Below are positions 680 to 18,308 of a stretch of 64,000 bases of DNA, piece by piece. The notes below the pieces were generated by a model. The model did not search any database, was not told the DNA's origin, and worked only from the letters and a program-made list of their open reading frames with translations. The position numbers and the translations under genes were made by a program. The stretch is from positions 15,120 through 79,119 of the forward strand of contig JBAWWL010000006.1 of assembly GCA_037146775.1 (NCBI GenBank). The letters run 5' to 3'. The stretch comes from Candidatus Omnitrophota bacterium. GTDB lineage: Bacteria; Omnitrophota; Gorgyraeia; Duberdicusellales; 4484-171. How positions within the stretch are numbered: the first letter of the stretch is position 1; each line of letters begins with the position of its first letter.

Positions 680-1426
680 CTATATCGCCAAACCTCCGTC
701 AATCTTTATAGTTTCTCCGGTAATATAGCTTGCCTGATCCGAAGCAAGAAACACGCACAAGTACGCCACTTCATTCGCTTCGCCCAAACGTTTCTGTGGT
801 ATACTGTTTATAATTTCTTTTTTAAAATCATCCCGCAAACCGCTCACCATATCCGTGTTGATAAAACCCGGACACACCACATTTACCCTCACGCCATACG
901 CAGCCACCTCTTTCGCCAAAGCCTTGGAAAATCCGATAATTCCTGCCTTAGAGGCGCTATAATTAGTCTGGCGCGGTAAACCGGTAATACCACTCACTGA
1001 ACTCATGTTTACGATGCATCCTTTTTTTTGTTTCAAAAAAGTAGTTATAGCCGCTCGGGTCATATTAAAAGTTCCGCCTAAATTGGTATCTACAACTTCT
1101 TTCCAGTCATCCATAGTCATCATCATCAACGCCTTATCTTTAGTTATGCCGGCATTATTCACTAAAATATCCAGATGAGAGAACTGGGCTAAAGCCTTCT
1201 CTACCACCTGGCGGCACTGATTGTAATCTTTAATGTCTGTTTTAATACCGCTACCGCTGGTACCCAACGCCTTAATTTCTTCCTCTAATTTTTTTGCTTC
1301 GGCTTCGCTCTTGTTGTAAGTAAAGACAATCTGCGCTCCGGCCTTAGCAAATTCCAAGCAGCACGCACGCCCGATTCCTCGCGCACCGCCGGTAATGATT
1401 GCGATTTTACCTTTTAAATCAGCCAT
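680..1426 (-). CDS. fabG: 3-oxoacyl-ACP reductase FabG (SDR family)
   Basis: 248 aa; TGGARGIGR Rossmann motif, NNAG and YxxxK SDR motifs; stop codon is TAG. Confidence 0.85.
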   Translation of the reverse strand: MADLKGKIAIITGGARGIGRACCLEFAKAGAQIVFTYNKSEAEAKKLEEEIKALGTSGSGIKTDIKDYNQCRQVVEKALAQFSHLDILVNNAGITKDKALMMMTMDDWKEVVDTNLGGTFNMTRAAITTFLKQKKGCIVNMSSVSGITGLPRQTNYSASKAGIIGFSKALAKEVAAYGVRVNVVCPGFINTDMVSGLRDDFKKEIINSIPQKRLGEANEVAYLCVFLASDQASYITGETIKIDGGLAI

Positions 1427-1494: not shown

Positions 1495-2736
1495 TTAGTT
1501 TTTATCAATGTATTTTTCCAATACGCACGCGCTGTTGTAACCACCCGGGCCGAAAGAAACCACCAATGCCAGCTTAACATCTTTCTTTTGTGCCTTATTG
1601 GGCACACAATCGATATCGCACTCCGGATCTTTTTCGCCCTGATGTATGGTCGGCGGAACAATTCCATGCTCGAATGCCCCGATGCAGGAAGCAATCTGCA
1701 GGGCTCCTGACGCTGAGAGAGTTTCTGCGGTCATTGATTTTATAGCACTTACCGGAATAGCCTCTAAGGCTTTGCCGAAAATACGCTTTAAAACCTTCAC
1801 CTCGATTTTGTCTAAATCCAGGGATGAATTCGCGCAGCTGGAAATATAATCGATATCTTTCAATCCTACCCCGGCCTCATCCAGCGCTGCCCGGATTGAC
1901 TTCTCGATACCTTCCCCTTGAGAATGTATTCTTCCAATCTTGACACCGTCGAAGCAACTTGCGACGCTACGCACCCTTGCAAAAATAGAAGCTCCTCTTG
2001 AATATGCGGTTTCCCGGTTTTCCAGACAAAACATACCGGCAGCCTCTCCCAAAATCGGCCCATTTCTGCGTTTATCGAAAGGACAGCTTAAGGCTGCGCC
2101 CTTAATCCCAGCCATATATCCCACTTTATGAAAACCAAAGAATAAGCTAAGATCAAGGGCCTCTACCGCTCCGACAAGCGCTATCTTGGCTTTGCCGGTA
2201 GACAAAACCGTAAGAGCGTACCGTAAGGCTTCCAATCCTGCGGTATATCCGGTAGCAAGAGAAACATTAAATCCCTGAATATTAAAACGGATAGAAACCT
2301 GAGATGACGCAGCGTTAAGAACGGTTGAAGGAAAAAGCGCCGGATTAGAAAACTCAAGGCCATCCTTGATCACTTCCCTGTCAAACTTGATCATCGCCCA
2401 AAGGTGAGGAAAAGTCGTACCAGTACTCACGCCAATATCGTCGGTATTTGCTTCGGTAATCTCTAATTTTGCTTCGTCCAATACCTGCTTGGCAGCGCAC
2501 ATCAAGAAAAGCCCGCTTCTATCTATGTTGCGTAAACCTTTTGGCCCAAGATATATTTTTGGATCAAAATTTTTGAGTTCCGCAGCCACGTTGACCGAGA
2601 ACTTTTCGGTAGGAAAAGATTCGATTTTTGAGACAGAGCTCACACCTTCTTCTATGCTTTTCCAGAAAAGCTCTTTACCTATACCATTAGGGCTCACCAC
2701 CCCGATACCAGTGATAAAGAATTCTTTATTTTGCAT
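1495..2736 (-). CDS. Ketosynthase (FabF/FabB)-like protein lacking the Cys-His-His catalytic triad
   Basis: Thiolase-fold KAS homologue. The active-site region reads SLATGYTAG where TACTSG is expected (no Cys), and the His motifs read SSCANSS and KSMTAETL (no His). Start is probably the MQNKEFFITGIG methionine; the maximal ORF runs to 2799. Confidence 0.7.
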   Translation of the reverse strand: MQNKEFFITGIGVVSPNGIGKELFWKSIEEGVSSVSKIESFPTEKFSVNVAAELKNFDPKIYLGPKGLRNIDRSGLFLMCAAKQVLDEAKLEITEANTDDIGVSTGTTFPHLWAMIKFDREVIKDGLEFSNPALFPSTVLNAASSQVSIRFNIQGFNVSLATGYTAGLEALRYALTVLSTGKAKIALVGAVEALDLSLFFGFHKVGYMAGIKGAALSCPFDKRRNGPILGEAAGMFCLENRETAYSRGASIFARVRSVASCFDGVKIGRIHSQGEGIEKSIRAALDEAGVGLKDIDYISSCANSSLDLDKIEVKVLKRIFGKALEAIPVSAIKSMTAETLSASGALQIASCIGAFEHGIVPPTIHQGEKDPECDIDCVPNKAQKKDVKLALVVSFGPGGYNSACVLEKYIDKN

Positions 2737-2932
2737 CTTTATTATTGTAACTGAAATATTAATTTTGTAAACCCCATCATTGCATCGGGTTGGGCACATA
2801 TAAAGAAGGAACTGTCGCCTTTTAAACTCCGGAAACCGCTACCAGGCAAATAAACATTATGAAAACGCTTTCAGGATACACCCTCTATACCCTTGCAGCA
2901 CTGTAAAGAAAAATGTTATCTTTTCAATGAGG

Positions 2933-4975: not shown

Positions 4976-5001
4976 ATTTAAGAATATTACGGATGAGAAA
5001 C

Positions 5002-5700
5002 TTATTTCTTGAAAGGCGAGTTGACCATATGTATTTTTATAGCCTTAACGGAAAATATCCAACATAGGACAAAAACAAGTAACATCGCACACACCCCAAA
5101 GATTAATCCACTGAAAGCGAAAAAATTGAAAAACCCGTGAGCAAATATCGCTAGCCCCAGGCCAGCATAGATATACCGTCGTTCGTGTTCTTTGCTATCC
5201 GTGAATTTTGCCAAACCCAGGTAATAACCCATAATGACTCCACAAAACGCGTGTAAAGGAACTGATATAAGCGCACGGAAAACTCCGACATTTAACACAC
5301 CAAATAATCCAAAGCGGCCGTAACTGGACAAGAGGTACAGTATATTTTCCAGAGTTGCAAAACCGAGCGAAATCATGACTGCATAGACAATGCCATCGTA
5401 AGGTTCGTTAAATTCATTGCTTCGATATACCAGCGCACGAAAAACCATGAACTTAAGCCCCTCTTCCACTAATGCCGCCACCACAAAAGCCTGCAAGAAA
5501 ATACGTACCACAAATTCATTAATAGCTGCCACAAAGCTCAGCAACGCTACCTCTACCACCATCGCCACAAAAGTTATCATGAATCCGTAAAAAAACGATA
5601 GCGCCAGGAACCGTAGCGGTTCTCTCTCATACTTATCTTTATGGTAGAAATACAACAGTAAGGCAATGACAGGAGCTATGGCCATCAATGCTATGATCAT
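5002..5700 (-). CDS. PrsW-family intramembrane metalloprotease
   Basis: Polytopic membrane protein carrying the EExxK motif (VEEGLKF) and the FxxxH motifs (HAFCG, FAHGFFNF). Confidence 0.65.
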   Translation of the reverse strand: MIIALMAIAPVIALLLYFYHKDKYEREPLRFLALSFFYGFMITFVAMVVEVALLSFVAAINEFVVRIFLQAFVVAALVEEGLKFMVFRALVYRSNEFNEPYDGIVYAVMISLGFATLENILYLLSSYGRFGLFGVLNVGVFRALISVPLHAFCGVIMGYYLGLAKFTDSKEHERRYIYAGLGLAIFAHGFFNFFAFSGLIFGVCAMLLVFVLCWIFSVKAIKIHMVNSPFKK

Positions 5701-5799
5701 ATTACCCTCCGAAAAGCAAATTTTAACATACGCGTATGCTTACGCAATGTTTCTTTTGATTGAATGTTCTCGACCGTCACGAATATGCTATAATAATAA

Positions 5800-7083
5800 T
5801 TGCCTATGCAAGCAACCATTAAAAAAATCGTCTATCCCGGGAAGAGTCTCTGCGTGTCCGGAGGAAAAGTAATTTTTACCGACGAAGGCCTCCCCAACGA
5901 ACTGGTGAAGCTGGATATACGCAGTCAGAAATCAAATTATACAAGAGCCCAAACATGCCAAGTTTTAAAAGCTTCTCCGTGGCGCGCACACACACGCTGC
6001 GACCATTATAAAGTGTGTTCTCCCTACCAATACATCAACTACCCATTCCAGCTGCACATAAAACAAGAACAGCTCGCAGAAATTTTTCTGCGCACACTTA
6101 AAATAAAAAACGAAAACATAGAGATAAAAGCGTCTCCACGAATATGGGGGTATAGAAATAAGGTACATTTGCATGTGCGTTGGCAGAAAAAAACCGCAAG
6201 TCTCGCCTACCATCTGCCGGAAATAAATGACCGGTTCATACACATAACCTGCTGTTTTCTGATATCCGAAGAAATGAACCGGCTGGCACAAGCAATACTC
6301 GCAATAATATCGCGCCACGAAGAAAGCGCGATACAAGAAATTGGGATAAAAGAAAGCTCGTCAAAAAAAGAGTTACTTCTTGTCCTCTATGCGGATTCGT
6401 CTCGTTTAACGCAAAAATTTTTGGATAGCGTAATCGAGCTGCCCAAAACTTTTTCCATAGAGGGCATCATAGGTATTACCGGCGGAAACAAAGCAAGAAA
6501 AGAAAATTTGATTTGGGGAAAAAGTTATATCGAAGAAAAAATTGAAGGATACATGTTCCGTATCGGTGCGCAATCATTTTTCCAGGTCAACACCGCAATG
6601 CTTACCACCATGTGTAACGATATAGCTCAAAGTACACATTTTAACGCGGGAGAAACTATTGCCGATCTTTACTGTGGGGTAGGAACTTTTGGTATTCTTC
6701 TTGCAAAAAAAGTATGCCGGGTAATCGGCATAGAGGCTAGCCGGGAAAATACGCTCCTCTTAGAGCAAAACTTAAAAATAAACCATATCGAAAATTTTAC
6801 CGTTTACAATGAATACAGTGAAACATGGTTCAGAAAACGGGTAAAAGAACCTGCGGATACGCTGATCATAGACCCTCCGCGCAAAGGCATCGGAAAAGAA
6901 ATCTGCGAACACCTGCTTAAATATTCCTGTCAGCGTATTATATATATCTCTTGCGACCCTGCCACACTGCTGCGAGATCTAAAAATATTGCTGGCCGGTT
7001 ATAGCCTCGAACGTATAACCGGTTATGATTTTTTTCCGCATACACCGCACATCGAAACCTGCACTTTGCTCGTTAAAAAATAA
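5800..7083 (+). CDS. rlmD: 23S rRNA (uracil-C5)-methyltransferase, RlmD/RumA/TrmA family
   Basis: N-terminal TRAM-like domain; SAM-binding motif DLYCGVGTFG; IIDPPRKG; catalytic Cys region ISCDPATLLRDL. Confidence 0.8.
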   Translation: MPMQATIKKIVYPGKSLCVSGGKVIFTDEGLPNELVKLDIRSQKSNYTRAQTCQVLKASPWRAHTRCDHYKVCSPYQYINYPFQLHIKQEQLAEIFLRTLKIKNENIEIKASPRIWGYRNKVHLHVRWQKKTASLAYHLPEINDRFIHITCCFLISEEMNRLAQAILAIISRHEESAIQEIGIKESSSKKELLLVLYADSSRLTQKFLDSVIELPKTFSIEGIIGITGGNKARKENLIWGKSYIEEKIEGYMFRIGAQSFFQVNTAMLTTMCNDIAQSTHFNAGETIADLYCGVGTFGILLAKKVCRVIGIEASRENTLLLEQNLKINHIENFTVYNEYSETWFRKRVKEPADTLIIDPPRKGIGKEICEHLLKYSCQRIIYISCDPATLLRDLKILLAGYSLERITGYDFFPHTPHIETCTLLVKK

Positions 7084-7127
7084 AATACCACAGCCCAAAC
7101 AAAAAACCAATAACCCGGCAATCGGGA

Positions 7128-8348
7128 TCAAAGATGTTTTAAAAAGGCAGTAACGGCAGTAATATCGGAAGTTTTAAGAAAAGTGCTGGTAGATAAAGTC
7201 AGATGCCCTTCGGCAATAAAACGGCCATTAGGAGAATCACCGGAAGGAATAAAATCTTTCAGATAATCGTAATCACCAATCGAGAAAGCATAGAGCTGCG
7301 ATACGCCCAACCCGCGATTTTCAAGCGCTGTATACGCCCGGTTTCTTAACTCAGGGTCATCGAACAGAAGCACAAGAAAGGGGTATGTCGCCCTATCACC
7401 CGCTGATTCCTGGATAATTCTAATACCGTTTACACCGACCAACTCATTAAAGTAGCATTGTGCCTTTAGCCTTTGCGCCTCTATCTCTGTCTCTAAGCGT
7501 TCAAAGCAAATATGGGCTATCCGTTTTCTAAAACCGGAAACACGATGGGTGGGAAAATTTACTTCATACTCCTCACGAAGCCCTCGTAAACGATTTCCCC
7601 GTAGATTCCAAAAAAGTTCAGGAAGCCGAAAAACAAACCAGAACAAGAACGGCCGATAAAACATTGCGTAGCCGAGTAATTCAGAAATTTTCAGGCTTTC
7701 GGATAAAAAATCATTTTTTACCAAGCTTCGGCACGTATGCTCAATATTGTCGGCATAAATATTATTATTGGCGACGACAACTCCCCCCTCATAAGTCGTC
7801 AGCCCCTTGCCGCGGCAGAGGCTAAAAAAAGAAAAATCACTGAAGCTGCCGATTTTTTTTCCCCGAAAACTTGCGCCCAGCGACTGAGCGCAATCTTCGA
7901 CGACAAAAAGCTTATAGGTATGCGCGATATTCTCGATTATTTCAAGATTTACCGCGATACCCGCCAGATGAACCGCAATAATAGCCAGGATATCATTGGA
8001 TTGGGCACAAAGATTATCTAAGGCGGTAGGATTAAAATTGAAATCATATTGGTTGATATCACACACCGCAACCTTAAGTCCTGCTCGCTGTATCGCCAAA
8101 GGAACAAGCGGACAGACATAGGAAGGTATAATAACTGTTTTTTTAGATGAGAGCCTTTTCAGGGACTCTAAAATAAAGTATAGGGCAGCAGTTCCCGAAT
8201 AAGTTACCTTCGCATGATTTGCTTTCAGATAATGCTCAAAATCTGCCTCCAAAGAACCTCGATAGCTTCGGGGATCACATAGAGCGAGCACCTCTCTTAG
8301 AGCGATGGGAAAACCGGCAGTAGGAGGAATTTCTCTAAATATGGCCAT
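7128..8348 (-). CDS. DegT/DnrJ/EryC1/StrS (ArnB-like) PLP-dependent sugar aminotransferase
   Basis: 406 aa with DegT-family architecture; the PLP-lysine region reads SLCRGKGLTTYEGG. Confidence 0.8.
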   Translation of the reverse strand: MAIFREIPPTAGFPIALREVLALCDPRSYRGSLEADFEHYLKANHAKVTYSGTAALYFILESLKRLSSKKTVIIPSYVCPLVPLAIQRAGLKVAVCDINQYDFNFNPTALDNLCAQSNDILAIIAVHLAGIAVNLEIIENIAHTYKLFVVEDCAQSLGASFRGKKIGSFSDFSFFSLCRGKGLTTYEGGVVVANNNIYADNIEHTCRSLVKNDFLSESLKISELLGYAMFYRPFLFWFVFRLPELFWNLRGNRLRGLREEYEVNFPTHRVSGFRKRIAHICFERLETEIEAQRLKAQCYFNELVGVNGIRIIQESAGDRATYPFLVLLFDDPELRNRAYTALENRGLGVSQLYAFSIGDYDYLKDFIPSGDSPNGRFIAEGHLTLSTSTFLKTSDITAVTAFLKHL

Positions 8349-8420
8349 AAATATTTATTTGTAATTGCTATTGGCTAATTTTATGCTAAAATCAATTTTC
8401 AAGCAAGATATTTTGCTCAT

Positions 8421-8831
8421 ATGTTTAAAAAAAGAATTACTCTTAAAATTCTTCTGTTTCTAATTGCCTCGGATATATTAGAAACCTGCACTCATTATTG
8501 CTTTAAAAAAAGTACTTTACCGGTCAGTGAGATTACCATTAACGGCTTTTCTTCTGCGGTTTCTTTTTTTCGTATTGTAGTTTTTTCTCCTTTTTTATGG
8601 TTAGGATTTCTTTTTGTCGGCTTGACTTTCGTGGTCTGGTCAACGATTCTTTCTAAAATAGATTTAAGCGTCGCGGTCCCGGCAGCCAGTTTCAGCTATA
8701 TATTGGTTCCTCTTGTCTCGATAGTATTCCTACACGAACAGATAGACACACTCAGATGGTGCGGCATCGCGATGATATTGCTGGGTATTATTTTTGCCTC
8801 CATAAGCAGCAAGGAAAAACGAATAGTCTGA
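8421..8831 (+). CDS. Small 4-TM EamA/SMR-like membrane protein, ArnE-like flippase subunit
   Basis: 136 aa, hydrophobic. The C-terminal HEQIDTLRWCGIAMILLGIIF resembles ArnE. It is paired with a second small membrane protein 1 nt downstream. Confidence 0.5.
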   Translation: MFKKRITLKILLFLIASDILETCTHYCFKKSTLPVSEITINGFSSAVSFFRIVVFSPFLWLGFLFVGLTFVVWSTILSKIDLSVAVPAASFSYILVPLVSIVFLHEQIDTLRWCGIAMILLGIIFASISSKEKRIV

Positions 8832-8832
8832 T

Positions 8833-9219
8833 ATGTATTCCAGTATATTTTTTCTTTTAGGGCTCATAGCGCTGGCGGATGTTTTTGACACCACGAGAGA
8901 GCTCTGCCTTAAATCAGCGATAAATTCCTTAGACGGCTATTCCCCCAATACCATCAAGAAGGTGTTACAGTTTGTCTGGACACTTGTTCGTCTACCGAAG
9001 GTATGGATAAGTTTTCTGTGCAGCGTCCTTTCTCTTTTTCTTTATCTCTTCGTCCTATCCAAAGCTGACTTAAGCGTTGCCTTCGCCCTTGACAGCATGC
9101 ATTATATATTTATTGCTTTTGCCGCTAAATGGGTGCTGAAAGAAAAATTCGGCGTTATGCGCTGGATGGGAACAATTTGTGTAGCGATCGGTATAACGCT
9201 GGTAAGCTTCAGCCACTAA
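8833..9219 (+). CDS. Small 4-TM EamA/SMR-like membrane protein, ArnF-like flippase subunit
   Basis: 128 aa hydrophobic protein forming a tandem pair with the preceding ORF; divergent from the DegT gene. Confidence 0.5.
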   Translation: MYSSIFFLLGLIALADVFDTTRELCLKSAINSLDGYSPNTIKKVLQFVWTLVRLPKVWISFLCSVLSLFLYLFVLSKADLSVAFALDSMHYIFIAFAAKWVLKEKFGVMRWMGTICVAIGITLVSFSH

Positions 9220-10733
9220 TGAAGTTCTGATTTCAGAAATTCTAACGCTAAATCAGCCGCATCAAGGCCGGAAAGAAAACAGGCGTGCACGCCGGCACCG
9301 GGACGCGTCCAGGCTCCTGTCAAAAAAAGCCCTTCCACTTTTGTTTCTTGACTTAAACGATTAATGCCCGACTGTTTAACGGTTTGCGCAAAACCATAAA
9401 TTGTTCCTTGCGGCGATAAGGTAAAACGCTCCATGGTACGCGGAGTAGCTATTTCTTTTATTTCGATAGAGCCGGAAAGACCGGGAAGGTAACGTTCGGC
9501 ACGCCTAATGAGAATATCCGCCAAAACAAGTTTTTTCTTTGCATATTCCTCACCGCCCAAGCTCCTCCATCTTTCATAAGTATCGAAGACAATAATTGAA
9601 AGCGTGCCTTTACCCTCGGGGGCAAGGCTTGCATCGAGCTGCGAATGATCCACCATTTCGAAAGGACAATGTTCAAAGTCCTGTTGTGCATAGTAGCTGA
9701 AGTTCTTGTCGTGATCGTAGGTTTCGTTAACGGAAAACATGAAATGATCCATTCCTAATTTTTTCGCGGAAACCTTCAGCCCCAGATACACCTGGAACGC
9801 GGATGTCGATTTTTCCAGCGAAGACAATTTCTTGCGATATCCATTTTTTACCGTATCATCGTCAAGAAGCTCGGTAAGCGTACTTGTGGCGTTCGCGTTG
9901 GAAATAATTGTTTTCGCCGTAAACGTTTCCCCCTTGTCAGTGAGCACCGCACTCACTCTTTTACCTTGTTGAGTAATTATTCTGGTAACGGTCGTATTGT
10001 AGCGTACTTCCGAGCCCTGCTCTCTGATTTTTGCAACCATCGCCTCGAACAATTTACCAACACCCCCTTTTATATAAGCTGTTTTCTCAAAATAATAGCC
10101 GCGAAAACCTAACAAGAAATAAAGTGCAGATAATCTGCTGGGCGCAAGGCCAAAGAAATACCAAAGATTGGCAATAATGCTTCTGAGCTTTTCATCCTGA
10201 ATATGCCTCGCCAGGAACTGGCCCGTAGTTAACCGGGCAACCCGTATAACCTTCAAAGAACGAATCAAAGCAGCCACACATTGCATCCACGAAGTAAATT
10301 GAGATGCGGTAAACCTGTCAAATTGGGCGAAGAATACATCCAGCTCATGGAAAAGTCTGTCGAGATTCTTTATTTCCCGGGGAAAACTGTTTTTGAGGAA
10401 TTCTACAAGGTGTTCGCGGTTAAAATCAACGACAAAGTCGTGCCCAGGATAAATAATACGCAAGAAATCTTTCAATACGATAAAATCTACTGTTTTATCA
10501 ACCCCTGTCTATTCTAAAAAATTTCTTATTTCGCTGCCCGGACAAAGACCATCAACGCAGTGCACCGAAGCCTCAAAAGTAAAACCTTTGCGTTTGAAAG
10601 TAGTAGCAAAACCGCCGGCGAGCGGCTGATGTTCCAAAACCAGAACCCGCTTCCCTTGATCCGAAAGTTCAAGCGCTGCGCTCAAACCGCCAACCCCTGC
10701 GCCGATTACGATAGCATCATATTGCTGCATCAT
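9216..10733 (-). pseudogene. Phytoene-desaturase (CrtI)-family FAD/NAD(P) oxidoreductase interrupted by a single in-frame TAG at 10509-10511
   Basis: N-terminal Rossmann motif YDAIVIGAGVGGLSAA is in the 74-aa ORF (10509-10733). The rest of the protein (9216-10475) is in the same frame. Read-through gives ...EIRNFLE*TGVDKTVDFIVLKDFLRIIYPG... Confidence 0.6.
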
Positions 10734-10735
10734 CG

Positions 10736-11575
10736 CTACGATGAGAGGCGGTTCAGGAAGCTGATCATCGCTTCGACAACCTTATCTCTCTCTTTATCAA
10801 TAGTGATCATGTGGTAACTGTCTTGAAGCAAAACCAGAGATTTATCGGCTGAACCGATATGATCCAGAATGTAGCGGGAATTTTTCGAACTGGTCATGTC
10901 ATCCTCATGCGCATGAAGAAGAAGAATAGGAGTTCTCACCGAAGAAAGTTCTTTTTTTACGACGCGAGCAAAAAGAGTGTGCTGGTAGAGACAGGCAATA
11001 GGAAAAAATGGGCTGCCAAAAAGGACCGAATCATTAGCAGAATGCCCAGCTTGAGGCTTGGTGTATGCACGATGAATATGTTCACGCAGCACCTCATCCT
11101 TTAAACCATAAGGCCAATCCTCCTTAATATTGATCGCGTTACGCAAAAAAGGTATATGCCAAACCAAAGGAAGCAGTGCCTGCCCTTTATGGATCGCCCA
11201 ACCGTCATAAGATATGGTAGGAGCGAGACCGATAAGTCCGCAGATCTGACCCGGCAAAAGATACGAAAGGTGAATTCCCACAAGCGCGCCCATAGAAAGG
11301 CCGGCCACAAATACTTGCGCATGGTCCTTCTGCAGCGCTTTAAAGTCTTCCAGGCATAGCGCAACAATTTCCTGCCAAGTAACTTTTTTGAGCTCACTCA
11401 ATGTGTGACAATGTCGAGGTAATGTATCGCAAAGCACACTATAGCCGGCCTTATTAAGACGCTTGCCGACATAGCGCATCTCAGAAGGAGTGCCGGTAAT
11501 GCCATGAACAAGCAGCACTGCCGTCTTGCTGCCTTTGAGAAAAAAGCTATATTTTTTCGAACCGTTATTCTCCAT
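10736..11575 (-). CDS. Alpha/beta-hydrolase (esterase/lipase fold)
   Basis: GxSxG nucleophile elbow (GLSMG); the HG oxyanion region reads VLLVHGITG. The maximal ORF extends to 11722; the start was chosen at MENNGSKK. Confidence 0.65.
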   Translation of the reverse strand: MENNGSKKYSFFLKGSKTAVLLVHGITGTPSEMRYVGKRLNKAGYSVLCDTLPRHCHTLSELKKVTWQEIVALCLEDFKALQKDHAQVFVAGLSMGALVGIHLSYLLPGQICGLIGLAPTISYDGWAIHKGQALLPLVWHIPFLRNAINIKEDWPYGLKDEVLREHIHRAYTKPQAGHSANDSVLFGSPFFPIACLYQHTLFARVVKKELSSVRTPILLLHAHEDDMTSSKNSRYILDHIGSADKSLVLLQDSYHMITIDKERDKVVEAMISFLNRLSS

Positions 11576-11654
11576 GAATTTTTTATTATACCATAAAAAT
11601 TTTCGGTATAAAGTTTTATTGTAATTACCGAAACCCTCTGTTATAGTATTTTCC

Positions 11655-12827
11655 ATGCTCAAAGATGATGCCATGCTCAACTTTACCGTCACAGACACCC
11701 TCGATAATATACCCCAAAACACCTGGGATCGTCTGTTTGGCTATGACCTTATCGAAAGCTACGGCTATCATAAAACGTTACATGAGGCGAAATTAAACGA
11801 GTTCGCTACCTACTATCTGATAGGAAAAAGGAATGACGCAACAGTAGCGATTATTCCTTTTTTCACGATGGAATTTTCTTTCACTACGCTGATACGCGGC
11901 CCACTGCAACGCATCGTTTTTGGCATACGCAAATTCTACAAAAACTTCCTTACCATGAAAATTGTTTTTATCGGCTCGCCTACTACCGAGTCCTTTCATA
12001 TAGGAGTAGCGGAAACGGAAAATAAAAATTGCATCATCGACCACGCATACAAAAAAATCGAAACATTTTCTCGTACGCACCACATTAACACAATTTTATT
12101 TTATAATCTTACCAACGCGGACCAGTCGCTCATGAAACATCTTTTAAACAACGGTTTCGCAGGGATGGAAGACTTTCCGGGAGCGCGGCTTGAAATACAA
12201 GCAAAATCGTTGGATGAGTATATCGCACATCTTGGTTCTAGCACGCGAAAAGATATACGCCGAAAACTACGTAAATCAACTCAAGCCGCAGTGCTTGAAA
12301 CCGAAATACGAGAAACGGTCGATGGAATAATCGACGATCTCTACAAGCTCTATCTCAATAATTTTAACGAATCAGATATTCATTTCGAAATACTGACTCC
12401 CGAGTTCTTTACCAAGTTATGCCACAACATGCCCGGCATAGTTAAATGTTTTGTTACTCGCCATAACGGAAAAATCGTCGCCTTCAATATGTGTTTCGTG
12501 AAAGGAAACTTCTGTATTGATAAATTTATCGGCCTCGACTACACGGTCGCCCTCCAATACAACCTCTACTACACCACCATTTGCTATAACATTGACTGGT
12601 GTATTAAAAACGGTATACGCTATTATCAGCCGGGCCAGGGCGACTATGACGCAAAAATCAGGCTCGGCGCTAAGCTTATCCCGCTTTATATTTTTATCAA
12701 AAGCTTCAATCCCCTATTGAACTTTTTCATGAAGCCGATCATTCAGCTGACACAGCCGAAAAACTTTGACCCTGCCCTGAAAAACCTCGCTAAATACCGA
12801 AAAGAAGTATTCCTTCGGGAAGGATAG
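11655..12827 (+). CDS. FemAB-like / BioF2-like GNAT-fold acyltransferase (PF04339-like)
   Basis: 390 aa; the N-terminal TWDRLFG...ESYGYHKTLHEA...IPFF pattern matches the FemAB_like family; a basic RKDIRRKLRK segment is present. Confidence 0.55.
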   Translation: MLKDDAMLNFTVTDTLDNIPQNTWDRLFGYDLIESYGYHKTLHEAKLNEFATYYLIGKRNDATVAIIPFFTMEFSFTTLIRGPLQRIVFGIRKFYKNFLTMKIVFIGSPTTESFHIGVAETENKNCIIDHAYKKIETFSRTHHINTILFYNLTNADQSLMKHLLNNGFAGMEDFPGARLEIQAKSLDEYIAHLGSSTRKDIRRKLRKSTQAAVLETEIRETVDGIIDDLYKLYLNNFNESDIHFEILTPEFFTKLCHNMPGIVKCFVTRHNGKIVAFNMCFVKGNFCIDKFIGLDYTVALQYNLYYTTICYNIDWCIKNGIRYYQPGQGDYDAKIRLGAKLIPLYIFIKSFNPLLNFFMKPIIQLTQPKNFDPALKNLAKYRKEVFLREG

Positions 12828-12828
12828 G

Positions 12829-13788
12829 TTAACTCGCTAAAACAGATTGAAGGATTTTTAGGTTGGTAATTTCGTTAAGTGCATTAATACGCTCAAGATC
12901 TTGCGCTAAAAAAGTATTTTTTGGATGATCAAAGAAAGAAATAACGCGTTTAACCAAACTTCTCAGGTAAATCGATGAATATTCTCCGGTAATATCCATT
13001 CCCGCTACATTTTTTTTGCTTTTTAAAATACCGATGGCCGCCAGCAACCAGTCAAGCGGTATAGATCCTTCTTCCCAATTAGTTACCGCGTGAGCTCTCG
13101 TGAGGCAATCTTTGTCGATACTGATATAAATATCATCCGTAGGAATACGGGCCGCCAATTCTTCGAGGAAAGATTCGATACTTTTTTCCGCGAGGTTTTG
13201 CCACTGTATTGTGGAACAAAAATATCCTTTTTTTGTATTGAGACAGCTGACACCATCCAGGGGCCGCAAAAAAACTTTTGCTGGCGGCCGGCTATAGGGG
13301 AAAATCTCGACTTTTCGATTTCTCAAGCCGCAAAAAGACGCGGTCAAAAGACCACGGGTCGACAGATCTTCGCATGACGGTCCAAGCAAAATAACTTTTT
13401 TTACGTTTTCACGGGCAGCTACGGTATTTACCCATGAACCACAGCTTAACTGCGGCGGAAGACCGTCCCAGTCCGGATGATGGTCGAAAACGACAAGGCT
13501 GATCGGCTGAGCAAACTGCGCAAGCAACGCAATAGAAATATGATGAAAATCTCCGGAGCCATACAGAGTAGTGATATTTCTTTCCTGGGGAGATAATTTA
13601 TGTTGCAGACGTTCCAGGCCTTTCCTGTCGGCCCAATAACGCAGGTAAGGAGCTTCAGAGGTACAGTCAACAATCTTTGTGAGAAATGGCGGTACCGAAA
13701 AATCTCTAAGCAGGTTTCGCTGCTTAAGGATGCTGTCGTCAAAATTGAGAATACGGATCTTATTGCGACAAAGTGCTAATGGTGCCAT
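12829..13788 (-). CDS. Arginase/agmatinase/formiminoglutamase-fold metallohydrolase
   Basis: Metal-binding motifs of the ureohydrolase fold: SGDFHHIS, FDHHPDWDG, SIDKDCL. Confidence 0.6.
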   Translation of the reverse strand: MAPLALCRNKIRILNFDDSILKQRNLLRDFSVPPFLTKIVDCTSEAPYLRYWADRKGLERLQHKLSPQERNITTLYGSGDFHHISIALLAQFAQPISLVVFDHHPDWDGLPPQLSCGSWVNTVAARENVKKVILLGPSCEDLSTRGLLTASFCGLRNRKVEIFPYSRPPAKVFLRPLDGVSCLNTKKGYFCSTIQWQNLAEKSIESFLEELAARIPTDDIYISIDKDCLTRAHAVTNWEEGSIPLDWLLAAIGILKSKKNVAGMDITGEYSSIYLRSLVKRVISFFDHPKNTFLAQDLERINALNEITNLKILQSVLAS

Positions 13789-15191
13789 TAAGGCTGTTTT
13801 TTAAGCGCAAGCGTAAGCGCCTCCTCAAAAAGCTCAACTGCCAAGTCCATTTCGCGTTCTGTTATATAAAGAGAGGGCGCGAGAGTAAAAGTATTCTTAT
13901 AGTATCCTCCGACATCCAAAATTAATCCGCGGCGGCTGCCTCCGGCGGATAATTTACCGCTTAAACCAATCTCGCAAATCTTGTCAGTAAGTGCCTTGCT
14001 GGGAGTAAAACCGTCTTTCTCGCACATCTCAATCCGGATTGCCAGCCCTAATCCATTTACGTCACCAATCTGAGGATATTTTTTTTGCAAAGCTTTCAGG
14101 CGCCTAAGAAGATACTTTCCCTTTTCGTTCACTGATGTCTCAAAGTCAGACTCCTCTATGATATTCAAGGTTTCTAGGCCAACGGCAGTACCTAAGGTGT
14201 TCGAGGAGAATGTCGAGTGAGTCGATCCGGGAGGAAATACGTCAGGCGAAATCAATTCTTCCTTAGCCCAGACGCCGCTTAGAGGATTCAGTCCGTTAGT
14301 AAGAGCTTTGCCAAAAACAATAATATCGGGAACGACATCAAAGTTCTCAATAGCCCAGAATTTTCCTGTCCGGTAAAAACCCATCTGTATCTCATCGTCT
14401 ACCAGAAATATATGGTAACGATCGAAAATTTTTTTCATTTCCTTAAAATACTCTTGGGGCGGAATAATATACCCGCCGGTACCCTGCACCGCTTCCACGT
14501 AAAATGCCACAAATTCGCTTTCGTCAACCTTGGAATCATATACCGAATAATATTCGGTTTCAAAAAGTTTTTCGAATTGCTTTACGCAATACAAATCGCA
14601 TTCATCGCGCTCTTTACCATAGAAACACCGGAAACAGTAAGGATACGGAACGAAGAAAGCCCGGTTGGCAAAATGCCCAAAACGGCGGCGGTAGCGATAG
14701 CTGGAAGTAATGGAACTGGCTTCAAGGGTCCTGCCGTGATAACTGCCAAAGAAAGAAAACACCAAGTTCTTGCCTGTAACATTACGGATCAATTTTTGTG
14801 AATCTTCCAACGCCGAGGCTCCGCCGACATTAAAATGGACTCTGCCTTTTGTTTTAAACTTTTTTTCATTGAGCCGGCATAGCTTGGTAGCCAATTCCAC
14901 TTTTTCACGGTGCAAATACTGACAAGCAAGCTGCGGCAATTTATCGATCTGACTCTTTAAAACGTTGTTCAGCCGTTTGTTACCGTAACCGAAATTAGCC
15001 GCGGAATACCACATCTGCAAATCCAGATATTCAACACCTTCTTCGTCGTAAAGATAGATATCTTTTGCCCGTTCGAAGATTTTTGGTTGTTTGGAATAAT
15101 GAACGGTATCGCCCCAGGAACAATACTTCTCTTCCAGCTTCAATAACTCCTGCTGTGATCTCGTCGCAGCTATTTGTTCTTTTACATTCAT
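13788..15191 (-). CDS. Class III PLP-dependent aminotransferase
   Basis: 467 aa; DDEIQMGFYRTGKFWA motif; catalytic Lys region FGKALTNG; glycine-rich GGASALE. Confidence 0.8.
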   Translation of the reverse strand: MNVKEQIAATRSQQELLKLEEKYCSWGDTVHYSKQPKIFERAKDIYLYDEEGVEYLDLQMWYSAANFGYGNKRLNNVLKSQIDKLPQLACQYLHREKVELATKLCRLNEKKFKTKGRVHFNVGGASALEDSQKLIRNVTGKNLVFSFFGSYHGRTLEASSITSSYRYRRRFGHFANRAFFVPYPYCFRCFYGKERDECDLYCVKQFEKLFETEYYSVYDSKVDESEFVAFYVEAVQGTGGYIIPPQEYFKEMKKIFDRYHIFLVDDEIQMGFYRTGKFWAIENFDVVPDIIVFGKALTNGLNPLSGVWAKEELISPDVFPPGSTHSTFSSNTLGTAVGLETLNIIEESDFETSVNEKGKYLLRRLKALQKKYPQIGDVNGLGLAIRIEMCEKDGFTPSKALTDKICEIGLSGKLSAGGSRRGLILDVGGYYKNTFTLAPSLYITEREMDLAVELFEEALTLALKKQP

Positions 15192-15232
15192 CTTCTTGCC
15201 TCCTTATCTAACATAAGGCCCTACCGCCTGCA

Positions 15233-15976
15233 TTAGCTATCCATACTTTTGAGATAGTTGTAAACCGTACCCAAATGCTCGAACGGAACATGCACTCTGT
15301 CGATACGCTTAAAATGATCGAGTAGATTACCCTTAGCGAATACAAGATCGGCGTGCGTAGCGGGACAAATATCCGAGAATCCATCGCCAATATATATCGT
15401 GAACTTTTCGCTTCGGCCATGATTAAAAATATGCGCGCGCTTACAGTTCGCGCACTTAAAACACTGCTTATTGGCGTGAGGAAACATAACACGAAACTTA
15501 TCGCGATCAAAGGTCAGCCGGTTTGAATAAACATCGATACCGTCGATGCCGTTTTTGTCGAGGATATAATTAATAATAAAAGAAAAACTGTCGCTTACAA
15601 TGGCGATTGGGACTTGCCTGCGCTTCAAAAGCTTGAGAAGTTTAGGAAAATAGGCGTCGACTTCTATCTTGGAAAGATAGGTAAGTAAATTTGGCTTGGT
15701 TATTCTTACTAAATTCATCTGTCCTTTAAGGCATTCCCGGGAACCAATTTTACCCTCCCGCCACTTCTCTTCAATTACCACCCATTCTTCGTTCATAGAA
15801 AAACGCTTGATGATATCGTCCAGCACGTCGAACGAAGTAATGGTATTGTCAAAATCGAAGAAAACCTTAGATCGAGAAAGGCAAATATGCTTACCTGCAG
15901 CCGCAGTTTCGCAAAAAACACTTTTTGGTTTCTCTCTGTGGCTTTTCCTTTTTGGCATTAATACGCTGCTTTTCAT
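15233..15976 (-). CDS. HAD-superfamily phosphatase (HAD-IB, PSP/MtnX-like)
   Basis: Motif I FFDFDNTIT; motif IV YIGDGFSD. The true start may lie downstream of the annotated Met. Confidence 0.7.
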   Translation of the reverse strand: MKSSVLMPKRKSHREKPKSVFCETAAAGKHICLSRSKVFFDFDNTITSFDVLDDIIKRFSMNEEWVVIEEKWREGKIGSRECLKGQMNLVRITKPNLLTYLSKIEVDAYFPKLLKLLKRRQVPIAIVSDSFSFIINYILDKNGIDGIDVYSNRLTFDRDKFRVMFPHANKQCFKCANCKRAHIFNHGRSEKFTIYIGDGFSDICPATHADLVFAKGNLLDHFKRIDRVHVPFEHLGTVYNYLKSMDS

Positions 15977-16185
15977 TTTCTAAAAAATCCGTTCGCGTAA
16001 CGATATACAAGAAGCAAAATAATTATATACCTTAACCGCGATTATACATACTGGTCATATAGATAGCCGTTTTTTTAAAATCTAAATTTATATTTTAGCA
16101 CTAAAAACCACTTTTTGTAATATTTTTTTAGAAGGCCTGCGCAGGATAAAAAACCGTGCAGATAGACGGCAAACGGATGCGCACA

Positions 16186-16581
16186 TTAGTCGGCAGAAAC
16201 AATCTTCCATGAAGTAAGCCTGTTGGCCCGGTCAAAATAAAGATATATTCTTTCTGAGTTAAAATAATGTGTTGGATGGCGATAAAGCAATACTTGCCGC
16301 AGTGTACCTTCAAAATTCTCTTCTTTCGATAAAATCGGCTCGTAATACATTTCAATGATATACCTTTTTAAAATACCTGGCTGTAATTTATTAGATTTCA
16401 CGTCCTGCTGTAATTGATTAAACCCTCGTTCCTGTTTTTTTAAATAACATTCCATATCGTTTTGGCTATCCGCCGCGTTTTGCAAAGTGAGTAATTCGTC
16501 CATATGACTCATCGTAGCGCAGCCGCTGGCAAAGAATATACCGACTATGCTCATTGTTTTCGTATAAAAATTATACGCCAT
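16186..16581 (-). CDS. Hypothetical lipoprotein
   Basis: Signal peptide with lipobox FFASGC; no recognisable domain. Confidence 0.4.
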   Translation of the reverse strand: MAYNFYTKTMSIVGIFFASGCATMSHMDELLTLQNAADSQNDMECYLKKQERGFNQLQQDVKSNKLQPGILKRYIIEMYYEPILSKEENFEGTLRQVLLYRHPTHYFNSERIYLYFDRANRLTSWKIVSAD

Positions 16582-16602
16582 AACAGTCTTTATAATTATC
16601 GG

Positions 16603-17163
16603 TTATTTTTTCTGCCAACTATAGCTGTTACCACTATACACTTCAAACCAAGAACCGCCGGGTGCACGTTTGTAGTCATCATCAAAAAACATCTTTCTCA
16701 CCTCTTGAATACCCACACCGTTTTTCGTGGCAGTTGCCTGATAAATAGTATCCCGGTCTTGATTTTCTGCCCTCAACGCCTCCTGAACCTTTGATTGCTC
16801 GTCGGCAGGCATATTTTTAGAAACTATTTCTAAATCAGCATTTTTATTTTCACCGATATATTCCTTTTTAAAATATTCGGTTATCGTGTCTTTGCGCACT
16901 CTGCGGCGTTCAATCGCGGACGAAAGCCCCGAAGAAGATTCCTGGGCATACACGGCTTCAATAAACAGAATCGCATTCATCTGTTTTTCTTTGGCGGTAC
17001 CGTAAATCTGATCCTGGATAGACTCGACATCCTTTGCCACATGCTGATAGACGTCAACCCGCATATTAATATCTACCTGTAGCGGCTTTGCGGTTTGCAG
17101 ATTAACCTTGGCACAGCCTATCATCACGATAGACACGATAAACAAGGAAATAATTATCTTCAT
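16603..17163 (-). CDS. Lipoprotein, possible YnbE-like/YdbL-like (DUF1318) fusion
   Basis: Lipobox VMIGC; the N-terminal ...INMRVDVYQHVAKDVE resembles the YnbE lipoprotein motif; located downstream of a YdbH-like gene. Confidence 0.4.
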   Translation of the reverse strand: MKIIISLFIVSIVMIGCAKVNLQTAKPLQVDINMRVDVYQHVAKDVESIQDQIYGTAKEKQMNAILFIEAVYAQESSSGLSSAIERRRVRKDTITEYFKKEYIGENKNADLEIVSKNMPADEQSKVQEALRAENQDRDTIYQATATKNGVGIQEVRKMFFDDDYKRAPGGSWFEVYSGNSYSWQKK

Positions 17164-18308
17164 TGCAAACCTCCTGCGCTATTATGAAAATTAATTGTAA
17201 CGCTTCTTTTACCCATACTTTCCGAAAAGAAATTCATCTCGAGGCTAACTGCGTCTTTGCCCTGACCTATATGCACAACTCCTTTATTATACTCATAATT
17301 TTTAAGATTATCAACTAAGGCATCATATGAAGTTTGATCAAGATAACCGCGTAAAAATTCAAGTGATGCCTCTTTTTTAATATGTATCAATCCGCCGGCC
17401 TGATTAGAAAAATTTCCTTCAAGCTTTTTTAGATTATCGCCCTCGAAACAAAGCGCGAGTGTTCCGTCAAAGCCTCCGGTAATACTAACGTTTTCTTCGC
17501 CGGCGACAAGCGCGACAACATTCTCTAACGACGCCTGCCTGAAACCGACTTGCAAACAGAAATTATTAGCGTTGCGCAGATCAATCTCACCGCTTGCATA
17601 GGCAGAACGGCCAAAAATAATATTCTTTGTTATCGGGAACAATACGCGGTATTTTTCCATCTTGAGAGGAAATACAAGATCATTAAACTCCTTCTGCTTC
17701 AAACGCAGCATAGGTATACGAAATACATAAAGGCCACCTTTTATTTTACGTAAAGTAATATGGTTCGCCTCAACATCGGAAGAATGAATATTGCAATCGG
17801 TGATTTCAAAATGCTCCAAGGTTATACGTTCACGGCCAATATGTGTTCTTAATGAAAATTGTATATCGGCGGCACCAAGACGTTTATCGTTCATACTTAA
17901 TCTTACGTTGCGCAAATCAATGGTTATTGGAACAAGCTGTACACTTATGTTCTGTTTTCCTGTCTTTTTGGCAACATCAACGGAACGTAAGGCCGGAAAA
18001 TTTTTTATTGTGCACGCTGCATCCTGCAAATATAACTTTGATACGCTAAGCCGGGAAATACCGTACAGACGAAACGAAACATAGCCGCTATTAAACGTCA
18101 CTTCAACGATATCGTTGGTGAATGTAAAATCCGTTATCGTAATACCGCTAAAAGAAAGATGTATTTTTTTTATGTTACAGGTAGCCTGAAAGTTTTTAGC
18201 AAGATAACGCGCAAGGTACATACGTAGCAGGTGGTCTTTTAAGAAGAAAAATGCCAGCGTCAGGACAATAACGCAGCACACAAATCCCTTGAGCACTTTT
18301 TTCGCCAT
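17160..18308 (-). CDS. YdbH/AsmA-like membrane-anchored protein (putative intermembrane lipid transport)
   Basis: N-terminal TM anchor and a beta-rich repetitive body; overlaps the downstream lipoprotein gene by 4 nt. Family assignment is tentative. Confidence 0.35.
   Translation of the reverse strand: MAKKVLKGFVCCVIVLTLAFFFLKDHLLRMYLARYLAKNFQATCNIKKIHLSFSGITITDFTFTNDIVEVTFNSGYVSFRLYGISRLSVSKLYLQDAACTIKNFPALRSVDVAKKTGKQNISVQLVPITIDLRNVRLSMNDKRLGAADIQFSLRTHIGRERITLEHFEITDCNIHSSDVEANHITLRKIKGGLYVFRIPMLRLKQKEFNDLVFPLKMEKYRVLFPITKNIIFGRSAYASGEIDLRNANNFCLQVGFRQASLENVVALVAGEENVSITGGFDGTLALCFEGDNLKKLEGNFSNQAGGLIHIKKEASLEFLRGYLDQTSYDALVDNLKNYEYNKGVVHIGQGKDAVSLEMNFFSESMGKRSVTINFHNSAGGLQ

Follow-up and report, generated by a model that had tools for sequence, protein, structure and literature searches.

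Which pathway is served by a compact group of nine genes on a contig of a Candidatus Omnitrophota bacterium (GenBank assembly GCA_037146775.1, contig JBAWWL010000006.1)? The group lies at positions 7128-15976 of the 64,000-nucleotide stretch that we analysed (hereafter referred to as the window). It comprises genes for a DegT-family aminotransferase, a tandem pair of small EamA-type membrane proteins, a CrtI-like oxidoreductase, an alpha/beta hydrolase (hereafter, the esterase), a FemAB-like transferase, a ureohydrolase, a class III enzyme dependent on pyridoxal phosphate (PLP) and a HAD phosphatase. A preliminary description of the sequence proposed an uncharacterised pathway that makes and flips an aminated, possibly aminoacylated, lipid-linked headgroup. 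Here we report that the genes form a cluster conserved across the phylum, with intact catalytic motifs, and we tentatively favour a regulated system that aminates or aminoacylates an envelope lipid and flips the product, thereby adding a primary amine (a cationic group) to the envelope.

Conservation of the cluster across Omnitrophota

To collect related loci, we used the ureohydrolase gene as an anchor and scanned one genome per species. The protein collection held 785 homologues of the ureohydrolase; wherever an organism was named, it belonged to Omnitrophota. The scan of species representatives returned at least 600 pattern matches, with a confirmed ureohydrolase relative in at least 578 species genomes. 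We kept 80 loci, 58 of which are labelled Omnitrophota or Omnitrophica; for the remaining 22, the submitters gave names such as uncultured Planctomycetales or delta proteobacterium. Neighbourhoods were compared by tBLASTn of the window proteins against the loci and by all-against-all clustering of open reading frames (ORFs), yielding 55 gene maps; the frequencies given below refer to the 40 loci with at least 7 kb on either side of the anchor.

The HAD phosphatase gene is present in 32 of these 40 loci (80%), mostly immediately upstream of the class III or ureohydrolase gene. The two EamA genes occur in 72% (29/40) and 62%, the esterase gene in 26 (65%), and the DegT, FemAB-like and class III genes in 65%, 62% and 60%, respectively. 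At least 17 distinct orders and orientations were found, the commonest being HAD, class III, ureohydrolase / esterase, DegT (opposite strand) / FemAB-like, EamA, EamA. The flanking genes vary from arrangement to arrangement while the cluster genes persist, which argues against passive synteny. The grouping is far beyond chance, and the cluster is kept together across hundreds of Omnitrophota species. The preliminary description had staked its proposal on a gene order conserved in relatives, and the genes do recur as a neighbourhood in dozens of species. It had also called the cluster uncharacterised, which holds; neither a survey of the phylum nor our other literature searches yielded a description of it.

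Two modules can be distinguished. The core consists of the HAD phosphatase, the ureohydrolase, the DegT enzyme and two four-transmembrane (4-TM) EamA proteins, usually with the class III enzyme, and some loci contain these genes only (L088, L053, L037, L031, L030, L068 and L015). The second module, consisting of the FemAB-like, esterase and CrtI-like genes, is separable and can sit elsewhere. In the metagenome-assembled genome (MAG) JACQXK01, a CrtI-like, esterase / FemAB-like triad lies on one contig (L092) and the rest of the cluster on another (L024), arranged as small GNAT, HAD, class III, ureohydrolase, RmlD-like, PMI-like, DegT, EamA, EamA, PagL; in L091, the FemAB-like gene stands alone. 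The proposal that all nine genes belong to one pathway is weakened by the CrtI-like gene, which is confined to the sub-clade of clusters that includes the window, and by a second module that is on another contig in at least one genome. A second MAG, JBAZOE01, carries HAD, class III, ureohydrolase, esterase and DegT genes twice, on two contigs (L059 and L071), and duplication or strain mixing is possible.

Several other genes join the cluster in part of the phylum. A gene for the lipid A 3-O-deacylase PagL (71 bits) directly adjoins it in 11 loci and in L003, and genes for an OmpR-type response regulator and a HAMP/HisKA kinase adjoin the esterase gene in six loci. Upstream of the HAD gene, four loci have a small GNAT gene, and three of these four are without the FemAB-like gene, which suggests that N-acylation is required. 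In three loci (L005, L024 and L086), genes for an RmlD-like reductase and for a PMI-like cupin accompany the cluster, and fatty-acid-synthase-type genes lie near it in about nine. No small ORF is conserved inside the clusters; the small inserted ORFs are all singletons.

In the window, all nine ORFs of the preliminary description are present (Table 1), and profile matches to Pfam and NCBIfam, read as bit scores against model cut-offs, agree with its family assignment for each gene. An exact look-up matched the window to contig CAZTHQ010000006.1 of MAG GCA_964613555.1, and NCBI records label these proteins Candidatus Omnitrophota. Spacing is operon-like for two co-directional sets, the FemAB-like gene with the EamA pair and the HAD, class III and ureohydrolase genes, both of which are tight or overlapping. 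The class III stop codon overlaps the ureohydrolase start codon (13788), and the second EamA gene begins 1 nt past the first. For the esterase, the longest ORF would start at a GTG at 11722; the start at 11575 is most likely, as given by the public record (279 aa) and by homologues of 276-287 aa.

Table 1 Genes of the cluster and of the fatty-acid-synthase-type set in the window
Feature	Position	Strand	Basis or remark
DegT/DnrJ/EryC1-family PLP aminotransferase, 406 aa	7128..8348	-	Pfam DegT_DnrJ_EryC1 145.8 bits
Half-size EamA/DMT membrane protein, 136 aa, first of tandem pair	8421..8831	+	EamA 32.7 bits
Half-size EamA/DMT membrane protein, 128 aa, second of pair	8833..9219	+	EamA 34.6 bits
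CrtI-family FAD oxidoreductase, 505 codons, in-frame TAG at 10511-10509 (codon 75)	9216..10733	-	Translation
Cytoplasmic alpha/beta hydrolase (esterase), 279 aa	10736..11575	-	Hydrolase_4 76 bits
FemAB_like/Acetyltransf_6 tandem-GNAT transferase, 390 aa	11655..12827	+	Pfam
Divergent ureohydrolase (arginase fold), 319 aa, cluster anchor gene	12829..13788	-	Arginase (PF00491) 28.8 bits; gathering threshold 22
Class III (fold type I) PLP enzyme, 467 aa	13788..15191	-	Aminotran_3 257.5 bits
HAD-IB phosphatase, MtnX/PHOSPHO-like subfamily, 247 aa	15233..15976	-	TIGR01489 105.8 bits (cut-off 81.55)
FabZ-like dehydratase	138-581	-	Fatty-acid-synthase-type set 138-2799
FabG-like reductase	680-1426	-	Fatty-acid-synthase-type set
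FabF-like ketosynthase, entire Cys-His-His triad lost (ATGYTAG, SCANSS, KSMTAET)	1495-2799	-	

Promoter-like sites occur in the four intergenic gaps where they would be expected; the count in a sigma-70 scan is within ~1.3 standard deviations of the shuffled expectation. Terminator-like sites number ~2x the expectation, and none was used. A scan of 5000-17500 against Rfam gave no match up to E=1, including no guanidine riboswitch, and we rejected control by a guanidine or other riboswitch; among related loci, only an unrelated thiamine pyrophosphate (TPP) riboswitch was found, in six. In L024 it lies at 5687-5796 (68.1 bits), upstream of a Thi4-like gene and ~2 kb before the cluster, to which it is probably unrelated.

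Divergent enzymes and an Arn-like membrane pair

The ureohydrolase is a weak sequence match to its Pfam family, with which its predicted fold and its metal ligands agree. In 17 homologues, the six binuclear-metal ligands (H82/H83, D102, H104, D106, D225 and D227) are invariant, as are the motifs GSGDFHH, FDxHPD and DKDC. A predicted model (mean predicted local distance difference test score, pLDDT, 85.9) has only ureohydrolases among its top structural matches: agmatinase 7lox (1e-8), guanidinase, arginases, formimidoylglutamase, proclavaminate amidinohydrolase and guanidinobutyrase. The protein shares with such enzymes, agmatinase SpeB included, the fold and the H, DxHxD and DxD ligands together with a nearby acidic residue. 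It differs from the characterised members in sequence (12-16% identity; TM-score ~0.5-0.6), in the invariant motifs CGSW, TNW and DHP that are particular to its family, in scoring above no NCBIfam cut-off and in having an HAD-IB phosphatase as a partner. It is also distinct from the peptide arginases of the OspR type, which belong to PF12640 (PMC8784127): at E-values up to 0.01, PF00491 alone was reported and PF12640 gave no match.

We aligned the class III enzyme with Escherichia coli GabT and archaeal enzymes. Equivalents of K268, D239 and Q242 are invariant in the alignment, and that of R141 is kept. In class III aminotransferases, a Glu211/Arg398 switch binds the alpha-carboxylate of glutamate or 2-oxoglutarate; in the cluster enzyme, Thr occupies both positions (QGTGG and NTFTLAP) and the switch is absent, so that a conventional amino or keto acid is an unlikely substrate. 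The best sequence matches (1e-61 to 1e-52) are archaeal-type class III enzymes, namely Pyrococcus ornithine- and gamma-aminobutyrate (GABA)-type aminotransferases and alanine/serine racemases, which have in common with the cluster enzyme the PLP lysine, the cofactor-site Asp and Gln and the R141 equivalent. By contrast, the archaeal aminotransferases keep Glu (QGEGG) and Arg, and the racemases keep Arg but carry Asp where Glu would be. As a group, the Omnitrophota enzymes make up a tight clade, with 64-82% identity across the phylum compared with 35-60% for the neighbouring genes, and identity falls to at most 44% outside it; no NCBIfam equivalog cut-off is reached. Thus, the name 'class III aminotransferase' used in the preliminary description stands as a family assignment, whereas the enzyme may not be a conventional aminotransferase, as it lacks the residues that bind 2-oxoglutarate or glutamate. 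Arginine/ornithine catabolism by an arginase and an ornithine aminotransferase is likewise unlikely without the carboxylate-binding Arg and Glu.

The HAD phosphatase carries motifs I and IV as DFDNT and GDGFSD in its translation. It scores 54.5 bits with Put_Phosphatase and 79.8 bits with the MtnX equivalog, under the cut-off of 303.2, and its closest solved relatives are MtnX (2fea, 1.7e-16) and phosphoserine phosphatases. Translational coupling to the phosphatase suggests that the class III enzyme may act on a phosphorylated substrate. PLP biosynthesis has been reported to be missing or incomplete across Omnitrophota (PMC10407285); despite these gaps, the cluster has two PLP enzymes.

The second of these, the DegT enzyme, matches the NCBIfam model for PseC best (113.7 bits, far under its cut-off), and PseC, LegC and WecE-type models all outscore ArnB, for which the equivalog NF008658 gives 69 bits against a cut-off of 631. 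Identity to E. coli ArnB is 29% over 165 aa. In alignment, Lys181 coincides with the catalytic Lys of QdtB and of 9bgp, and the match to solved nucleotide-sugar aminotransferases is about as good as that to scyllo-inosose aminotransferases (~1e-17 to 1e-18), with NtdA among the matches. A family-specific aromatic insertion of ~45 aa, absent from ArnB, is seen in the 15 of 38 orthologues displayed, in which the segment ELFGYWIFYRPxLFWFVFRLPQ[IL]FW is conserved. From its composition, the insertion may be a membrane-interface element.

The tandem pair of small 4-TM proteins divergent from the DegT gene is as the preliminary description had it, and the pairing is conserved in relatives. Each EamA protein has three to four hydrophobic segments in a simple hydropathy scan, with four in the second, and the closest named families of the pair are ArnE and ArnF. 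The first scores 45.6 bits with the ArnE model (cut-off 92) and the second 33.8 bits with the ArnF model (cut-off 99). Aligned with their E. coli counterparts, both are 31% identical, over 55 aa for ArnE (E 5e-11) and over 62 aa for ArnF (E 2e-4). Hence the label 'ArnB/ArnE/ArnF-like' is apt at the level of family or superfamily and fails at every Arn equivalog. ArnA, ArnC, ArnD and ArnT, already noted as missing from the window, are absent from its annotated ORFs and from the conserved neighbours in the 55 gene maps, the remainders of the genomes not having been searched.

For the FemAB-like protein, a sequence search of solved structures gave no match, and a literature search on PF04339 and on a link to bacterial ceramide synthase found nothing relevant. 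Its AlphaFold model (pLDDT 87.5) adopts a tandem GNAT fold. The top Foldseek matches (E 3e-13 to 1e-9; entries 9wqx, 7z6a, 1ne9, 4v34 and 5vrv) are enzymes dependent on aminoacyl-transfer RNA (aminoacyl-tRNA), namely Sbb17/Sba18, FemX and the synthase domains of A-PGS, L-PGS and MprF, whereas coenzyme A-dependent tandem GNATs come lower. A basic helix at 195-211 (STRKDIRRKLRKSTQAA) lies between the GNAT halves, and R198 and K199 within it are invariant. A positively charged helix that binds the tRNA acceptor stem is common to aminoacyl-tRNA transferases, according to a review (PMC6103681), and the helix of the model may correspond to it. The donor would most likely be an aminoacyl-tRNA.

The esterase has the nucleophile motif GLSMG, and its closest solved relatives are thermostable bacterial monoacylglycerol lipases (5xks, 3.3e-28) and Est30 esterases. 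Hydrolases also share operons with aminoacyl-phosphatidylglycerol synthases (aaPGS) (PMC6103681). The second module resembles such systems (MprF, A-PGS and L-PGS with the hydrolases AhyD, VirJ and PesT) in the predicted tandem-GNAT fold with a basic helix, possibly equivalent to theirs, between the halves, in the esterase and membrane translocator encoded alongside, and in the co-directional, tight or overlapping arrangement of the FemAB-like gene and the EamA pair in the commonest gene order. It differs in that the transferase is a free soluble protein assigned by Pfam to FemAB_like/Acetyltransf_6 and not to the MprF synthase domain, in that the translocator is a small heterodimer of the drug/metabolite transporter (DMT) superfamily instead of the MprF flippase domain, and in that the module can be missing or unlinked in Omnitrophota. 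Sbb17/Sba18, Orf11 (streptothricin-type) and FemX are the best structural matches (E ~3e-13; target-normalised TM-score 0.72-0.73), and the acceptor of Sbb17-type enzymes is an amino-sugar amine, which the DegT enzyme could provide in the cluster. Sequence identity to these proteins is, however, 12-14%, other streptothricin or peptidoglycan-bridge genes are absent, and the Omnitrophota cluster is phylum-wide and not a sporadic antibiotic cluster.

Proposed envelope-lipid amination and competing explanations

Taken together, PagL, the OmpR-type genes, the monoacylglycerol-lipase-like esterase, the DegT insertion and the tandem-GNAT matches make a link to envelope lipids plausible. In this reading, the cluster appears to follow a hybrid-like logic of Arn and MprF-type systems and to be a member of neither. 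We infer that the substrate is a lipid or lipid-linked molecule and that the final acceptor is lipid A or a phospholipid; the donor and the order of steps given here are to be read in the same way. In module 1 (HAD, class III, ureohydrolase, DegT and the EamA pair), cytoplasmic enzymes would build or unmask a headgroup amine. The HAD phosphatase and class III enzyme would work on a phosphorylated precursor that lacks an alpha-carboxylate, and the binuclear-metal ureohydrolase would strip an amidino- or urea-type cap, leaving an exposed amine. The DegT enzyme, aided by its aromatic insertion, would transaminate a keto group at the membrane surface, and the EamA heterodimer would carry the amphipathic product across the inner membrane, like ArnE/ArnF. 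Module 2 (FemAB-like and esterase, with the CrtI-like protein in one sub-clade) would attach an acyl or aminoacyl group and then trim or recycle it, in parallel with aminoacyl-phosphatidylglycerol synthases and their operon-encoded hydrolases.

Several observations weigh against this proposal. In the 55 gene maps, the surroundings of the cluster show no conserved gene for a glycosyltransferase, a lipid-carrier transferase or an ArnT-like enzyme, and a lipid-linked product, as put forward in the preliminary description, can therefore be stated only conditionally, even though the broader link to envelope lipids is plausible. Small DMT/SMR-like pairs (SMR, small multidrug resistance) also export soluble cations, and the second EamA protein has a weak match to MdtI. 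The scores for ArnB, ArnE and ArnF are all far under the equivalog cut-offs. Judging from its sequence, even the reaction type of a class III enzyme without the Glu/Arg switch is ambiguous. Module 2 is unlinked in one genome (L092 and L024) and absent from the minimal clusters (L088 and others), and the products of the two modules may therefore be different. The ureohydrolase gene is solitary in 6 of the 40 well-flanked loci, and only certain lineages have PagL and the two-component genes beside the cluster.

A more specific version of the lipid proposal, which we regard as a long shot, has the FemAB-like enzyme moving Arg from Arg-tRNA onto a lipid headgroup, the ureohydrolase converting it to an ornithyl group and the ArnE/ArnF-like pair flipping the product. 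The acceptor would be an amine or hydroxyl on a headgroup prepared by the DegT, class III and HAD enzymes. We know of no Orn-tRNA, without which ornithine could not be added directly; Arg would thus have to come first and be converted to Orn afterwards. If true, this scheme would merge MprF, Arn and peptide-arginase logic in one phylum-signature pathway.

The strongest rival to envelope-lipid amination, although we consider it unlikely, is a soluble cationic metabolite (an aminated sugar or polyol, aminocyclitol-like or polyamine-like) that is exported by the EamA pair, with the GNAT enzyme aminoacylating an amino-sugar amine as Sbb17 does on streptothrisamine. The FemAB-like fold speaks for it, as its best matches, Sbb17/Sba18, act on a soluble amino-sugar antibiotic intermediate. 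So does the DegT enzyme, which is about equally close to scyllo-inosose and nucleotide-sugar aminotransferases (~1e-17). A DegT-family enzyme and an HAD phosphatase acting on sugar phosphates constitute the logic of kanosamine synthesis, which the DegT-HAD pairing and the presence of NtdA among the DegT matches would fit. The RmlD-like reductase and PMI-like cupin of L005, L024 and L086, the failure to find a lipid-carrier transferase near the cluster and the weak match of the second EamA protein to MdtI, a spermidine exporter, point the same way, SMR/DMT pairs being known to export spermidine and guanidinium. Against a soluble product, a membrane role is indicated by the DegT insertion, by the lipase-like esterase and by the neighbouring PagL and two-component genes, and the EamA proteins score higher on ArnE/ArnF than on any SMR exporter. 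The cluster, moreover, contains no guanidine or other riboswitch, and a phylum-wide, single-copy core cluster would be unusual for a secondary metabolite.

It is also doubtful, to much the same degree, that there is no single pathway and that the cluster is a simple juxtaposition, in Omnitrophota, of two or three operons unrelated to one another. The units would be guanidino/amino metabolism (HAD, class III and ureohydrolase), amination and flipping of a lipopolysaccharide sugar (DegT and EamA), and a lipid esterase/acyltransferase set (FemAB-like, esterase and CrtI-like). A ureohydrolase with an omega-aminotransferase is the classic catabolic pair for arginine, agmatine or guanidinobutyrate, which the ureohydrolase and class III enzyme resemble. 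The modules are found apart, as in L092 and L024 of the same MAG, in L091, in L088 and other loci without FemAB-like and esterase genes, and in the 6 of 40 loci with the ureohydrolase alone; the class III enzyme is ~70% conserved compared with 35-55% for its neighbours, as though differently constrained. Yet the units stay adjacent through at least 17 rearrangements while the flanking genes change, and they are interleaved: in the commonest order, the esterase gene is co-directional with DegT and the FemAB-like gene with the EamA pair. Nor does the resemblance to the catabolic pair extend to its chemistry, as the class III enzyme lacks the Arg and Glu required with ornithine, GABA or 2-oxoglutarate, the ureohydrolase is just 12-16% identical to any characterised enzyme, and the HAD gene stays with the ureohydrolase gene even where the class III gene is absent.

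The likeness to Arn invites the idea of a degenerate or partial system for 4-amino-4-deoxy-L-arabinose (L-Ara4N) on lipid A, with ArnA, ArnC, ArnD and ArnT encoded elsewhere. As in E. coli and Salmonella, a DegT-family aminotransferase gene lies beside a tandem pair for 4-TM DMT proteins of ~110-135 aa, which have ArnE and ArnF as best named matches; the PagL gene and two-component regulators that adjoin the cluster in some lineages recall PhoPQ/PmrAB-regulated remodelling of lipid A; and an N-acyl transferase and a hydrolytic 'unmasking' enzyme are formal analogues of the ArnA formyltransferase and ArnD deformylase. However, identity is ~30% over partial lengths with all three equivalog cut-offs missed, the DegT enzyme is nearer to PseC, LegC and WecE-type models than to ArnB and carries an insertion that ArnB lacks, and the four missing partners are found neither in the window nor in the 55 related gene maps. 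The conserved HAD-IB phosphatase, class III enzyme and ureohydrolase, as well as the tandem GNAT and lipase-like esterase, are foreign to Arn. We therefore rule out a classical Arn system on equivalog scores and missing partners, and consider the partial form very improbable and essentially excluded.

The least credible alternative, a cluster for a ribosomally synthesised, post-translationally modified peptide (RiPP) or a lipopeptide in which an arginase-type enzyme makes Orn from Arg before GNAT acylation, as in selidamides (PMC8784127, PMC10028609), has in its favour the co-occurrence of an arginase-fold enzyme with GNAT-type acyltransferases and the fatty-acid-synthase-type genes near some loci, and is likewise essentially excluded, because no cluster has a conserved precursor-type small ORF, the arginase is of the wrong sub-family (PF00491 alone, and not PF12640), lanthionine synthetase, C39 peptidase and ABC exporter are missing, and the fatty-acid-synthase-type genes resemble FabZ, FabF and FabG.

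Omnitrophota are abundant, mostly uncultured nanobacteria, many of which are thought to be host-dependent, and to our knowledge their envelope chemistry is almost entirely unexplored. A cluster that is present in hundreds of species and that joins a flippase-like pair, two PLP enzymes, a ureohydrolase and an enzyme resembling aminoacyl-tRNA transferases offers a tangible and testable way into that chemistry. In pathogens, surface charge is controlled by Arn, EptA, MprF and Alm. If a cationic group is placed on lipid A or phospholipids here, the cluster would represent a new solution to surface-charge control, and functions would follow for the divergent sub-families, that is, class III enzymes without the Glu/Arg switch, DegT enzymes with a membrane-type insertion and a new clade of ureohydrolases. 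All the enzyme families are already known, as is the idea of modifying envelope lipids with amines and flipping them; the gene combination, its phylum-wide conservation and the three divergent enzyme sub-families are new.

The CrtI-like gene and other parts of the window

The preliminary description listed an in-frame TAG in the CrtI-like gene among the features of the cluster. The codon is present in the window, but it is not recoding and is no feature of the pathway. In an independent assembly, made from run SRR12676968, one contig (L002) is identical to the window over 12,329 bp except at position 10511, where a single-base difference gives AAG (Lys) in place of TAG. The differing base is position 13 of that contig, 13 nt from its end, which suggests an assembly-graph branch at a polymorphic site. 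TAG is the stop codon of 15 of 54 ordinary window ORFs, and intact CrtI-like orthologues of 497-501 aa are found in L003, L005, L008, L009, L055, L057, L070 and L092. These three lines of evidence rule out pyrrolysine or read-through and leave two options for the TAG, a nonsense variant of very recent origin or an error of assembly. With the TAG read as Lys, the protein scores 211.8 bits with crtI_fam (TIGR02734), under the subfamily cut-off of 238.1, and its closest solved structure is CrtI (4dgk, 1.7e-30); it reaches the Pfam Amino_oxidase threshold and has the FAD motif GAGVGG. We rejected a hopanoid or carotenoid link through this gene, as SQS_PSY, polyprenyl synthase and LytB genes adjoin the cluster in L088 only and the CrtI-like gene occurs in one sub-clade.

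The ketosynthase (KS) of the fatty-acid-synthase-type set in the window has lost its catalytic triad (Table 1). The same inactive KS occurs mid-cluster in L003 (11085-14984) and L057 (11127-15098), together with a ketoreductase (KR), an acyl carrier protein (ACP), FabZ and an intact FabF. The inactive KS and FabF may form a KS/chain-length-factor-like pair within a possible housekeeping fatty acid synthase. We rejected a dedicated polyketide-type synthase: the sets in L003, L057 and L070, consisting of ketoacyl-ACP synthase, KR, ACP, dehydratase and a further ketoacyl-ACP synthase, score as FabF, FabG and FabZ with an inactive KS partner, and may be a housekeeping fatty acid synthase rather than pathway-specific.

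Directly downstream of the cluster (16186-18308, minus strand) lie genes for a 131-aa lipoprotein (read by eye, with no Pfam match), a DUF1318 protein of the YdbL family and a protein of 382 aa that weakly matches YdbH (22.7 bits, under the cut-off). In L005, too, the trio keeps its synteny with the cluster. It resembles the E. coli ydbH-ynbE-ydbL operon for intermembrane phospholipid transport, except that the YdbH-like protein is far shorter. A lipid A late acyltransferase gene (Lip_A_acyltrans, 141.7 bits) beside one for a glycosyltransferase resembling monogalactosyldiacylglycerol (MGDG) synthase, at 48282-50236 (minus strand), suggests that lipid A is made by the organism.

Three consecutive ORFs of 643, 382 and 250 aa at 53302-57127 (minus strand), just upstream of a ddl-murB-murC-murG-ftsW cell-wall block, have no Pfam match at E-values up to 1e-5. 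Three HD_5 (HD-GYP-type) proteins and one MshEN-PilZ protein are encoded at 21075-22490, 50287-51450, 51984-53321 and 37825-38679, which suggests dense cyclic-di-GMP signalling for a stretch of 64 kb. Nearly all genes in the window lie on the minus strand, GC skew is negative in each 2-kb bin and the cumulative skew runs steadily down to -3.99, consistent with a position on one replichore with strong gene-replication co-orientation.

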